64,000 nucleotides of DNA from Anolis carolinensis (lineage: Eukaryota), in contig NC_085842.1 of the NCBI RefSeq assembly GCF_035594765.1, positions 242,679,747 through 242,743,746 of the forward strand, given 5' to 3'. Every line of letters begins with the position of its first letter. The stretch's first letter is position 1. Shown one piece after another: positions 2,167 to 51,228 of the stretch. A program made the position numbers and the translations under genes. The notes beneath the pieces are model-generated. The model saw only the letters and a program-made list of their open reading frames with translations. It was not told where the DNA came from and did no database searches.

Positions 2167-3304
2167 AATAATAATAATATCCAATAAAATCCCAAAACTG
2201 GAAATCAGTTGGTAATTATATCTTCATATCTTTCTACATAAAAGCAAGTTGCAGATCTAGGTTCATAATATAGCTGAACAACACTGACAGTTTAATGCTA
2301 CTATTAGTCTAAATTAGAATAGATTTATTGAATCAAGGAGCTTTACTTACCTTTCCATTCACTATCCAATTAATCTTCTTTAGATGAGACTAATCAATAG
2401 GATTCAGGCCAATAGGAATCATTAAAAGTGTTATGGCTTCAACCGTGCATCTGACCTCATCAGATGGGTGGAAGGAAAGCGGGGGGGGGGGGGGGGCGGA
2501 GGAAAGTGGAAGGAACCATCTTACATGGTTCCTTCCTGTCTTTCCCCGTTTTCCTTAAATTAACAATTTTAAATGTAATTCTTATCTTCATCATTTGCAA
2601 TAATTCAGAGGCAAGGCTTTCATAACAAGTGAGGAGAGGGGGGTTAAACAGGAGAAGCGGAATTCCCTCATGGCAGATACAAAATTTAGAGAGACAACAT
2701 TGTTATTGAAGAAGCCATTGTTCACAAGCTGAAGTGATGTATTGTGTTTCAGGTTAAAGTCAGGAGTATCAAATTAATGGCCAGAAATGAAAGCCTATCA
2801 CTTTTTGTCTGATATGTTGTTATTTACCCTAACCAGTAATTTATTTTCAGAGGAGCTGACTCACTAAAAAACAAAAAGCATGCCAAGTTCATGCAGTCTG
2901 TTGGAGAGCTGGACCAGGAGAGACAAACCAGCAATGCTTCATTTGTCAGGTCACCTAAATGGAGATGATGGACAGAGTTTTGGAAAAGATTGTTTCCTCG
3001 TCCCCTGCTCTCAACCGGTCACTAAATAGCTTTGAGGAATCACTCCTACAATTAAAATTTGGCTTTAAGTAGGATTTTGGTCACTGCACAAGGCTGGTAC
3101 AGAGTTGAGTATTCTGCAATGACCAAAACAGTTACTTGCAATGGCATATATTAGTCTATTGTAAGTCAGCAACAGGAAGACAGCCAAATGTTTTAGACTG
3201 GACAGTCATTCTCTATTCTTTATAGGCTGGTAAGGAAAAGTAATAACAAAATAAGTAATAAACCTGCCCTTCTGTCTCCATATTGCACAACACAGGCCCA
3301 AGTC

Positions 3305-17084: not shown

Positions 17085-17997
17085 TGTGATGACTCATGGG
17101 CCATGTAGTCCCGTTCCTAGTGCTGTTGTGAATGATGAAGAGGAAAACTTGGGTTTTCCACCATTTCAGCCAGAAAAGGAACTATCCCAGCCAGGAATTG
17201 AGCCTTTGCACCTGCAGGAGGCTTGTCTTCCAGAAATCTGCCAAACAAGCCCTGAGTCGAGTTCTCCCCCTTTTTCGCGCCGTAATTATTATCTCCAGCA
17301 AAAAGGAGTGCAACAAGCTAATCGCAGGAGTTTGAGAATTGCAGCAAAGCATTCAGATGATTAAGCCTGCTGCCATGAGAAATTTTAGGGAGTCATACAT
17401 CTGGACACAGAGATTGACTTTCGTTTCTGATTCCCCAGAGAAGTGTTCTCTGGTGGGAAAACGAGGCCTATTTAGGTTCCTTGCTCCCGAAGGAATCTTG
17501 CGGAGTCAATTCGTCAGCTACCGGAGCAGCGTGTGTGGACAGCTACTCCTGTTTTCAAGCCTTTGTTCCTGTTCCAAGCCTTCGTTCTCAGCCTTGTTTT
17601 CTCCCCGGATCTTGCCTTGTTTTCCGGACCTCGCCAAGTAATTACCACGGATCTTGTTCTTGCTCCTCGTTTCCTTGTTGCCTTGAATCAAGCTTTGTGT
17701 GCCAAGAATCAAGTTATTTCCTAACCTTGCTCAAGTTCATGGACTAAAGGACCTTGTCATCTCCCCTCACTTGCTTGGCAAGTGAGTGTTTCGGTTATTG
17801 GATTACAACTTTGGACCTTAATATTTCATATTGGACATTGCTTTTTTGGACTAATTTTGACCTTTCCTGAAAGGTCTACTTCTGGACTATTTCCTATACT
17901 TGTTTTTATTAACTTTATATATTTCCTTAATAAAGATATTAGATAGATTCTGGCCTCTGTGTATGGTTATTGGTGCTCTGCAGCCTGGGTCGTGACA
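17085..17997 (+). mobile_element. Solo LTR, Gypsy-like, 913 bp
   Basis: Termini TGTGATGAC and GTCGTGACA; 5-bp TSD ctgtg at 17080-17084 and 17998-18002; AATAAA at 17929. Confidence 0.9.
17086..17364 (+). other. Intact 92-codon frame in LTR U3 (acidic/Pro-rich, ending RRSLRIA); putative C-terminal tail of a retrotransposon ORF
   Basis: Ungapped homology to the same-position frame in LTR 19619-20500. Confidence 0.6.
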
Positions 17998-19618: not shown

Positions 19619-20500
19619 TGTAACACCCCTAAGCACTGGAAACCAACACGGAGGCCAATAAACAATCTAATATCTTTATTAAAGCAATAAAAGTTCTAAA
19701 CAAAAATAATCAGAGTATATAGTCCAGCAGTTGACCTTTTAGAGAAGATCAAAATTAGTCCAATAAAATAAAGTTATATGTCCAATATTAGAGTCCAAAG
19801 TCTATAATCCAAATAACCGAAACACACACAAACTCTTTGGAAGTTTGAGTGGAGAAAGAGCAAGGTTTCACAGGGAGATTCTTGAAGTAAAGTCCAGAAC
19901 AAGGATTCAAGGCTAGGCAAGGTATTTCGTGGTGGATCTGAAAGGCAGTCCAAACTTGACAAGGAGTGGAACGCAACTCCCAGTCTACTCGTGAGTAAGC
20001 GCACCGGAGGGCCGCTTGGAAGCTCAGGAACAAGAGACGATGTTCTTCTATGAATAGTCATGTTGACACCACAATAGGGAAAGCTCAGTGCAGAACTTTT
20101 ATGGAAGTTCAAGAGCTCCTCCCAAGCAGGTGTTTGACTCCCCAAATCTTCCCAGAGAACGGAGCTGTTTCAACATCGTACCAGATGCCTGCCTCCCTGA
20201 AACTTCCCAAGGGAAACGGTTTAGTCACAATCGTCTCTCTCCGCTAATCTCGCGCTTCATCTTAAAAACTGCTTTTGGGAGCGATGTGTTTTGAGAAAAG
20301 CCTTCCTATCAAACACCAAGCTTTCCGGAGAAACAGGCTCTGTTTCAAGGGTGTCCGTAATTGGCTCTGGCACGAAAATGTCAACAGGAGACATCTGGAA
20401 TGGAACAGAATCTTGTTGAGATGGAAAAAAGTCCAAATCCTCTTCAGTTTGATCTATGATGATTGCGGGGTCATGGGGCAAAGGTCCCTGAGACATCACA
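19619..20500 (-). mobile_element. Solo LTR, Gypsy-like, 882 bp, distantly related to 17085-17997
   Basis: TG...CA termini; TSD aaagt at 19614-19618 and 20501-20505; shared tgtgatg start and aataaagatattagat...tggcctc near the 3' end. Confidence 0.9.
20221..20499 (-). other. 92-codon frame in LTR U3 with one TGA (probably CGA by CpG decay), ending R(R)SARLAERDDCD
   Basis: Manual translation past the TGA at 20257-20259 to the TAA at 20221-20223. Confidence 0.6.
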
Positions 20501-39641: not shown

Positions 39642-40244
39642 CATAGAATCATAGAATCATAAAATCATAAAGTTGGAAGAGACCTCACGGGCCATCCAGT
39701 CCAACCTCCTGCCAAGAAGCAAGAAAATCACATTCAAAGCATCCCCAACAGATGGCCATCCAGCCTCTGCTAAAAAGCCTCCAAAGAAGGAGCCTCCACC
39801 ACAGTCTGGGGCAGAGAGTTCCACTGCTGAACAGCTATCTCTTACAATTAGGAAGTTCTTCCTAATGTTCAGGTGGAATCTCCTTTCCTGTAGTTTAAAA
39901 CCATTGTTCCGCATCCTAGTCTGCAGGGCAGCAGAAAACAAGCTTGCTCCCTCCTCCCTATGACTTCCCCTCACATATTTATACATGGCTAACATGTCTC
40001 CTCTCAGCCTTCTCTTCTTCAGACTAAACATGCCTAGCTATTTAAGCCACTCCTTGTAGGGCTTGTTCTCCAGACCCTTGATCATTTTAGTCGCCCTTCT
40101 CTGGACACTTTCCAGCTTGTCAACATCTCCCTTCAGTTGTGGTGCCCAGAATTGAACTCAGTATTCCAGGTGTGATCTGACCAAGGCGGAATAGAGGGGG
40201 AGCACAACTTCCCTCAATCTAGACATTATACCCCTATTTATGTA
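39642..40244 (-). mobile_element. CR1 LINE 3' fragment
   Basis: FSLKKRRLRGDMLAMYKY...GFKLQERRFHLNIRKNFL is the CR1 ORF2 C-terminus; heptamer tail. Confidence 0.95.
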
Positions 40245-48908: not shown

Positions 48909-50121
48909 TTAGACTTGTATACCTCTACTCCCATTTTGGCTCGGAGCAATTTACAGAAATAGATTAAAACAATACAATTAGCTTTAAAATAACAATAAAA
49001 ACAATAAAAACAACAATAAAAACAGACATAGCCCCGAGTTTTTCACCCATCGAAAGCTTGTCAGAAAAGAAAGGTTTTGCAGGCTTTCCGAAAGGCAAGT
49101 AGGTCTCGGATAGTTCGAGTTTCAACTGGCAAGGCATTCCATAAATGAGGAGCTACAATCGAGAAGGCTCTCTGCCTAGTAGAAGACAAATGATAAGTCC
49201 GTATGTTAGGGACTTCGAGCAAATTTTGGTCTTCAGACCGAAGTAATCTCTGGGGTTGGTAGGGGGATAAGCGGGCCCTCAGGTACGCCGGCCCCAAACC
49301 ATATAAGGCCTTAAAGGTTAGTACCAGTATCTTGAAAGTAATCCGGTACTCAATCGGTAGTCAGTGCAGCTGTTGTAGAATTAGGGTGATACGCCACCTC
49401 GCCAGCACGCCAGCGAGAAGACGAGCCGCCGCATTTTGCACCAGCTTCAGTTTCCGGATCACTGACAGAGGAAGGCCAATGTAGAGGGCATTACAGTAGT
49501 TGAGCCTCGAGATGACCGTCGCCTGGATCACCGTAGCCAAGGTCGTTCCTCGATAGTTAGGGAGCCAGTCGCCTAGCCTGACGTAGATGGAAAAACACAG
49601 ATCTGCTCACAGCAGAGACCTGGGCCTCCATTGTGAGCAGAGGGTCCAATAAGACACCAAGACTTTTTACAGAAGATGATGGACGTAATGTCTCACCATC
49701 CAGGGTAGGCAGCTGGATCTCCCTCCCACCCAGACGGCCCAGCCAAAGGATCTCCATCTTTGCTGGATTCACCCTGAACCTGCTGGCACGTAACCATCCA
49801 GTAACGGCCTCAAGGCACTGATGGAAACTATCGGGTACGGAGTCTGGCCGGCCCTCCATCCTCAGAATGAGCTGAATGTCATCAGCATACTGGTGGCACT
49901 CAAGCCCAAAGCTCCGCACCAGTCGGGCAAGCGGTCGCATATAGATGCTAAATAATAGAGGAGAGAGACCCCACAAGTTAGCGGAGACCACTCGGAAATC
50001 ATTTATCTGTTTTAAACTGGAATATATGAGCCCCCACTGCCAGATAACCTGGGATCAGACAATCTGGGATCAGACAATCTGAGATCAGATCTTGGGCTAA
50101 AGAGGCCGTGTGGAAGGGACC
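48824..50121. mobile_element. Harbinger-like MITE split by an L2 insertion (arms 48824-48861 and 50001-50121)
   Basis: TIRs gggcccttccacac and gtgtggaagggacc; tttagcccaggatc/gatcttgggctaaa subterminal symmetry. Confidence 0.8.
48862..50000 (-). mobile_element. Young 5'-truncated L2 LINE with RT domain and (TAAA)n tail
   Basis: SEWSPLTCGV-[PQG deleted]-LSPLLFSIYMRPL...HQYADDIQL...RQRAFSIVAPHLWNALP...FRKACKTFLF; CpG-rich. Confidence 0.95.
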
Positions 50122-50298
50122 AGTCAGAATGTTTGTAATTACTCAGTGTGGCATATTAATCTCTTCTACATACTTGTCTTACACATTCCCATTGATATTT
50201 TTGACCAAAGCAGAAGGTTTATATTCTACTCTAGATTGCGGAAGCAGAGGCCCACATGACACAATTGCACATGGATCTGCATGGTGAATGGATATGAA

Positions 50299-51055
50299 TG
50301 TTGCACTCCAGTACTGGAACACCCTTTCACTCAACACACCAGAGTCCAGTACTCCAATAGAATAATGTTTATTAAAGAAAGGATATAAAAAAAGAAAAGG
50401 TAAAATACAAAAGAGTCAATAAAAGACATAAAATGCATTTTTCAAATGAAGCCAGAGTTCAGTAGCAGTAATTCAAAAATGCCAGGTTAAAACACAATAT
50501 AAAGGAATCCAAAAACATAACATTAAACCAAAGCTATTTCCAAGAATATGAAGACAGGAACTTCTTCAAAGTAATTTCTTCAAAGATACATAGGCATAAA
50601 CAGGAACATGAAACAGGAGCTTTGGTAATACATGAACCAAGAATTTGGAATCACAATCGGGAGATCAATCTCCTTTAGCAACGTTGTTTCCTCTGAAATT
50701 CCCGAAAGCAAACCACTTACTTTAAGCCCTCCAAGACACCCATGACATCATGCGAAACACAGTCTTGTCTCAAATCCTGTGAGAATATCTAGTTTGCCAG
50801 CTTTTCACACCCTGCGTTCTCAGGTCTAATCTGTTCTCCCTTGAAAACTCTTCATCTCCCCAAGGCCTTTTCTCAAGGGAACTGGCACTTTCATTTTTCC
50901 CTGTTGCCTGAGAATGAGCTGAAGAATCCAAAACATCAGCCTTATCTGCTTGCAATTCCCTCCAAACACTCACAGACTCTTAATTTTGGAACCTATTATC
51001 CCCCGCATCCTCTGAACATTCAGACAAATCCTCTGATGCTTGCCAGACTACAACA
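50299..51055 (-). mobile_element. Solo LTR, Gypsy-like, 757 bp
   Basis: Termini TGTTG and CAACA; 5-bp TSD atgaa at 50294-50298 and 51056-51060; minus-strand AATAAA near 50368. Confidence 0.88.
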
Positions 51056-51228
51056 ATGAAGCACATTTGGGTGTGCATTGGTTTGGGCATTAGGTTGCAC
51101 TTTGGGTGTCTTAGTTTACTCATGCAACACTATCATTCAACACAAGGTGTGGGTAGTTAAATGTGTAACTCTCCAAATTCTGTGCAGGCTTGTAGGATCC
51201 TAGCTATATAGTGAGGGATACATTAATG

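Follow-up and report, generated by a model that had tools for sequence, protein, structure and literature searches.

The family-3 LTR and its sister families

A solo LTR of an old Gypsy chromovirus family, called family 3 here, lies on the minus strand at 50299..51055 of the window, i.e. of the whole 64,000-nucleotide stretch of Anolis carolinensis DNA that was analysed. Its features are listed below (window positions).

50299..51055, minus: solo LTR of family 3, 757 bp, TGTTG..CAACA
51056..51060, plus: target-site duplication ATGAA, 5' side of the LTR (flank match, 5 bp)
50294..50298, plus: target-site duplication ATGAA, 3' side of the LTR (flank match, 5 bp)
50717..51054, minus: relic of an integrase C-terminal tail, frame from LTR nt 2, ~116 codons in family 3
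50719-50717, minus: family-wide stop codon ending the tail (family-3 copy comparison)
50875..51054, minus: acidic, serine-rich part of the tail, first ~60 codons (D+E ~0.20 in family-3 copies)
50773..50847, minus: basic block FSR..RL..RYSHRI (translation and family-3 copy comparison)
50980..50982, minus: internal TAA, nearly private to this copy
50770..50772, minus: TGA, present in part of the family-3 copies; the family end lies elsewhere
50761..50762, minus: approximate site of a 13-nt frameshifting deletion (bases absent relative to family-3 copies)
50368..50373, minus: AATAAA near the LTR 3' end, likely polyadenylation signal (sequence and analogy to Sushi-type LTRs)

The window copy is a fossil of this family: with two in-frame stops and the 13-nt deletion, it has been broken three times and is dead. 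The TG..CA ends and the short target-site duplication are as expected of a chromovirus, and Tf1/sushi chromoviruses (Ty3/Gypsy, Metaviridae) are likewise described as having TG..CA LTRs with the AATAAA placed close to the 3' end (PMC3601003). The genome search for family 3 gave 650 first-look candidates, the best 40 of which were 76–84% identical to the window copy, and the mean pairwise identity among 38 family-3 copies was 83%. No internal sequence of the sister families was detected in the 1.5-kb flanks of 30 fetched family-3 loci. A full-length family-3 element was not found by DNA, pattern or protein searches in which the top candidates were scored, nor was a family-3 RT. At the DNA level, the comparison of the family-3 LTR with the two sister LTRs of the window (below) yielded nothing significant (best E 0.08).

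17085..17997, plus: solo LTR of young sister family 1 (copies and full-length element L093)
17086-17361, plus: intact 92-codon tail of LTR 17085, ending RRSLRIAA (open frame, family 1)
19619..20500, minus: solo LTR of sister family 2, 92-codon tail with one stop in the window copy

The two sister LTRs have a common 190-bp 3' block (78% at the DNA level). The stop of the family-2 window copy was seen in 4/30 copies, and the family-2 stop, at nt 278, in 30/30; the nearest chromodomain-linked relative of family 2 is L102 (70% identical). First-look candidates in the genome numbered 5052 for family 1 and 2883 for family 2, and copies of all three families were spread over many contigs. The LTR-17085 peptide matches database proteins whose names give them as Gypsy integrase-like proteins of Anolis carolinensis. 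The full-length family-1 element L093 (G000:C3:198875400-198882000) has LTRs 99.9% identical to each other and the domain order gag, PR-RT, RH-IN-SH3-chromodomain, i.e. the gag, PR, RT, RH, IN order without env that is known from chromoviruses. The gag frame of L093 differs from that of pol, which is broken once, between RT and RNase H.

Another young lineage of chromoviruses was met in L187:1022-1729 (minus) and L188, with an integrase 67% identical to that of family 1, paired LTRs 96–99% identical, and a 153-residue LTR tail containing RRSARLARK. A tree of the chromodomain region failed to resolve the lineages (3/23 branches starred). The remainder of the window (1-64000) is repeat-rich vertebrate DNA with many dispersed 300-bp repeats and microsatellites. 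Short reverse-transcriptase-like ORF fragments are present in it, e.g. at 49557-50054 and 39657-40037 (both minus), which we take to be LINE-like.

The family-3 frame and its continuity with pol

The sequence-only reading had translated 50770-51054 (minus) into a frame with one TAA, one TGA, no Met and FSR-x16-RYSHRI, and had reported related motifs and their spacing in LTRs 17085-17997 (plus) and 19619-20500 (minus). All of these were present as described. The family-3 frame was then compared over 56 distinct copies, 38 from 50 loci and 18 from 28 later loci. Neither stop of the window copy is family-wide (TAA in 2/55, TGA in 21/56 copies), an outcome that favours the earlier reading. Within nt 1-349, no codon of the nt-2 frame was a stop in the majority of the copies; majority stops in the other five frames numbered 12, 7, 4, 6, and 3 (32/582 codons), and the chance of zero in 116 codons is P ~0.0014. 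The frame is thus open beyond chance at the family level. Its end had been placed at the TGA, and this part did not stand: the TGA was rejected as the family-3 terminator because 51/54 copies terminate later, at nt 350 of the reference copy. The 13-nt gap of the window copy lies just past the TGA and was seen in 1–2 of 38 copies. In the basic block, F, S, R, R, L, R, S, and R are each common to 35–53 of 55–56 copies; the H of RYSHRI was seen in 2/56 only.

The absence of a start codon had led to the proposal that the frame is read into from an upstream ORF, and this was borne out in L096, whose LTR is 77% identical to the window LTR over the full length. In L096, a Gypsy integrase chromodomain runs in frame through the purine tract into LTR nt 2. 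A chromodomain at the integrase C-terminus, as in chromoviruses, is therefore linked to a family-3 LTR. The Pfam Chromo match in this decayed copy has an E-value of 2e-5 and 24.9 bits, just below the cut-off of 25.1, and the region is 58% identical to that of the sister protein P0001 (Pfam Chromo, 36.4 bits). L096, itself degraded, is the one clean family-3 junction; L098 is frameshifted at the junction and in L099 the junction is lost. Family-3 pol very probably reads from the integrase chromodomain into the LTR.

An initial pattern match in L096 was rejected as the junction: it proved to be 105 bp of LTR sequence preceded by a G run, and the real junction lies 1.7 kb away. This LTR start (L096:671-775) lies upstream of the chromodomain-linked family-3 LTR at 2354-3103, with unrelated DNA between them, and no matching target duplication was found in the flanks of the two LTR pieces.

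Family 1 behaves likewise. Its pol reads into the 3' LTR for 92 codons, the 92 codons from nt 2 are open at 30/30 loci, and at 7/30, which are 3' LTRs, a purine tract and 283–500 open codons in the same frame lie upstream; UniRef integrases terminate in a tail of the family-1 type. The junction phase is the same in L064, L102, L103, L104, L118, L187, L188, L189, L190, and L100, and L191 is shifted near the junction.

In both full sister elements examined, which belong to two families, a tRNA-type primer site was absent, and a 10-nt complement of the post-LTR sequence was found past the tail stop, at about LTR nt 416 and nt 491. The model for such a complement is the self-priming of Tf1 (PMC7175516), and by analogy it would mark the transcript start. 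On the same analogy, we infer that the family-3 tail lies in U3, upstream of a self-priming transcription start. If so, only the 3' LTR of a full element would yield the translated tail; a solo LTR never would.

The domain order and the self-priming signature of the lizard sister families are shared with Tf1/sushi chromoviruses, fish and frog relatives of which also read past the purine-tract junction. Unlike these, whose tails are mostly short, the lizard elements add 85–153 acidic-then-basic residues inside the LTR. The read-in may already be noted in Repbase entries and in the Tf1/sushi work of Butler et al. 2001. In plant CRM group A and some beet Reina/Bingo elements, the gag-pol frame is described as extending into the 3' LTR, and the LTR of CRM group A as encoding a putative targeting domain, the CR motif (PMC3059260, PMC3605345). 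The lizard coding frame enters the 3' LTR in the same way. The two differ in that the CR motif is described as replacing the chromodomain in CRM group A, whereas the lizard elements retain a chromodomain ahead of the purine tract and have the LTR tail in addition.

Distribution, homology and selection of the tails

The sequence-only reading had suggested a clade-wide tail, which was upheld for the position and the acidic-then-basic layout and not for the motif. About ten lineages in the Anolis carolinensis genome have an acidic-then-basic tail at the same position. The tails have a common composition, with an acidic first part (D+E ~0.2) and a basic remainder (K+R 0.22–0.24). Acidic tails past the same type of junction were found in proteins named Rhineura, Vipera, Crotalus, Salvator, and Podarcis, and three of these squamate-named tails (P0041, P0091, P0111) end in a basic block without RRSxR[LI]. 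From the protein sequences alone, we infer that the squamate tails (P0041, P0091, P0111, P0044, P0047, P0063) lie inside LTRs. The pattern [RK][RK]S.R[LI] after the chromodomain was seen in 0/95 parsable of 162 database proteins, retrieved mainly by a representative search, and in 2/97 parsable of 109 database proteins, both named Anolis. In this second set, tails after the chromodomain had a median length of 46 residues, and 60/97 were at 60 residues or less (mostly fish and frog). The acidic-then-basic layout looks squamate-wide; the RRSxR[LI] motif appears so far in Anolis only.

Homology of the family-3 motif with those of the other families had also been proposed, and here the comparisons gave scores at chance level or close to it. 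With an HMM built from 15 sister tails, the window frame scored 2.2 bits, and 55/1000 shuffles scored equal or better, which comes close to contradicting the proposal. In profile-profile comparison, families 1 and 2 were clearly homologous (probability 97%, E 6e-11), and family 3 against families 1 and 2 stayed within the column shuffles (probability 0.3%, E 0.22). The 15-copy family-3 profile set included copies shifted near the start; later family-3 HMM and motif tests used the 9/38 copies with an undisturbed frame. The family-3 HMM aligned the family-2 tails over the exact block proposed earlier, although weakly (3–32 of 300 shuffles), and gave 7 and 10 of 300 shuffles on L187 and L188, and 33–197 of 300 on the family-1 group. 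The basic block of L100 was recognised (21.3 bits, 0/300 shuffles); L191, for which a frame offset was assumed, gave no match. An HMM of the C-terminal block of alignment A1 (10 sister-lineage tails, 18–51% identical to the family-1 tail) on the window copy was equalled by 20/500 shuffles. The relaxed pattern R.S.R[LI], chosen post hoc, was present in the basic half of 6/9 intact-frame family-3 copies, which count as one observation, at a shuffle rate of 0.2–2%. No Pfam family matched the tail, and the ESM Atlas search with it returned only chromodomain clusters, below 0.9. From its position, the family-3 tail may plausibly share an origin with the others, sequence comparisons being at or near chance level. 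The family-3 LTR extends the read-in layout to a distant family, without support for homology at the motif level.

Selection was assessed by counting differences per codon position in DNA-only alignments of 10 pairs (6 sister, 4 family-3). These counts were used instead of protein-guided between-family dN/dS (0.14–0.70 in 11/12 pairs, the twelfth saturated) because the latter leans low by construction. A third-position excess confined to the tail was obtained in 2/10 pairs, and in none after the stop codon. For L187/L188, the position counts were 11/10/24 (P 0.0045), and the last 40 codons, at 4/1/16, gave the strongest signal seen; for L068/L102, the counts were 16/19/35 (P 0.003). Protein-level selection on the tail is shown by these two sister lineage pairs. 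The excess was not significant in the four other sister pairs (P 0.057, 0.10, 0.34, 0.88). Tail gaps measured 9, 18, and 15 nt in L068/L102 and L046/L064, and 2, 3, and 2 nt in L046/L103. No selection signal was detected in 4/4 family-3 pairs (P 0.095–0.84), and the all-pairs family-3 dN/dS was 0.61 in frame vs 0.59–0.78 in the other frames, as is expected for copies that decayed after insertion.

The terminal motif and its possible functions

The two RRSxR arginines are invariant in A1, and S and the third R are each present in 9/10 tails; R-R-S-x-R-[LI] with three arginines is found in 9/10. The tails of P0004, P0005, L064, P0171, and P0172 end in RRSARIAA, and the other sister tail ends are RRSARLAR (L187, L188), RRSARLAE (family 2), and RRSLRIAA (family 1). 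Family 3 departs from the three-arginine form: the window copy has RYS.RI, and the second motif position is Y in it and in 38/56 family-3 copies.

HMGN RRSARLSA and Dsup RRSSRL(TS) are reported to bind the H2A-H2B acidic patch (PMC12487698), and so is yeast Dot5 RRSARIAT, for which the same three arginines are described as required (PMC13347269). The sister tail ends resemble these motifs; family 3 is without one of the three arginines that Dot5 is described as requiring. Prototype foamy virus Gag, KSHV LANA, and CMV IE1 are described as tethering to nucleosomes by an arginine anchor (PMC9040877). These viral tethers resemble the tails in using a short arginine-anchor peptide to bring a foreign genome or integration complex to nucleosomes, and differ in that they sit on Gag or nuclear antigens, as opposed to an integrase tail here. 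The main text of this acidic-patch review does not contain the word 'retrotransposon' (PMC9040877). A literature search, with Repbase, subscription journals and supplements outside its scope, found nothing on such a tail or on an acidic-patch motif in lizard or retrotransposon integrases.

In the mechanism that we propose, the pol frame continues past the integrase chromodomain and across the purine tract to enter the 3' LTR, where it adds a tail of ~116 residues, acidic and then basic. The family-3 tail would likely be a flexible arm for chromatin docking or nuclear import, its acidic spacer likely carrying an arginine anchor to the nucleosome beside the chromodomain. The terminal arginine motif would anchor the integrase on the H2A-H2B acidic patch, as do the HMGN, Dsup, and Dot5 motifs. 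We hold acidic-patch binding by the sister-family tails only tentatively, as somewhat short of an even prospect. For the family-3 tail, it seems unlikely: with the second arginine lost, binding would be weaker or would depend on other basic residues. Also tentative is the broader possibility that squamate chromoviruses have made U3 encode a second integrase arm that reads chromatin; in Anolis this arm would have converged on the HMGN/Dsup/Dot5 motif, with family 3 as an older branch with a variant anchor.

The same read-in may instead supply an NLS or a non-specific DNA-binding patch at the basic tail end, the HMGN likeness being incidental, and to this we give not quite even chances. Basic C-terminal NLSs are described for the Ty1 and Ty3 integrases (PMC7175516), and an NLS-like stretch has been proposed for beet CRM integrases (PMC3605345). 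Squamate tails that end basic without RRSxR[LI] (P0041, P0091, P0111), and the Y seen in most family-3 copies, are consistent with such a role. NLS patterns are K-rich. The pattern conserved here is instead of the HMGN/Dot5 type as described for those proteins, and R-R-S-x-R-[LI]-A is kept, including S and the hydrophobic residue, across tails that are otherwise as divergent as those of A1, both of which speak against an NLS.

A tolerated run-on of pol in family 3, with no function of its own and a motif layout due to chance and composition, is rather improbable. It would account for profile tests at or near chance and for the missing family-3 selection signal, although copies this decayed cannot show selection either way, and fish and frog relatives, with the short median tail given above, also run on past the junction for a short stretch. 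It is at odds with a predicted frame that has no shared stop over 116 codons (P ~0.001), with the recognition of the L100 basic block, and, within the limits of a post hoc pattern and a single observation, with the frequency of R.S.R[LI] in intact-frame copies. Separate genes encoded in LTRs are known, e.g. MMTV sag and HIV nef, and two predicted host proteins (P0002, P0054) have a family-1-like tail fused to unrelated sequence. That solo LTRs express the family-3 frame as such a gene or as a host exon is nevertheless very improbable: the frame has no Met, it is continuous with pol, in two sister families the tail precedes the presumed transcription start, and the window copy is interrupted by two stops and a frameshift. 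A stand-alone LTR gene was rejected.

Thousands of solo-LTR candidates in lizard Gypsy families (650, 5052, and 2883 in families 3, 1, and 2) carry the coding end of an integrase. If the proposed reading holds, one and the same sequence in them doubles as promoter region and as coding sequence. Were acidic-patch binding true, a retrotransposon integrase would join the short list of HMGN-like nucleosome binders, and these would be the first retrotransposon integrases with both a chromodomain and an HMGN-like nucleosome anchor. With peptides, the route of vertebrate chromoviruses to chromatin could then be tested in a simple way.

Among the database proteins, P0041 (named Rhineura floridana) has a chromodomain, an acidic tail, RGRP, and a terminal SLRPKR, i.e. 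a different basic anchor at the same place; the RGRP is presumably AT-hook-like. P0093, like P0002 and P0054, is named Anolis carolinensis and is a predicted host protein with a family-1-like tail joined to unrelated sequence; the three could be annotation artefacts or exonised LTRs.
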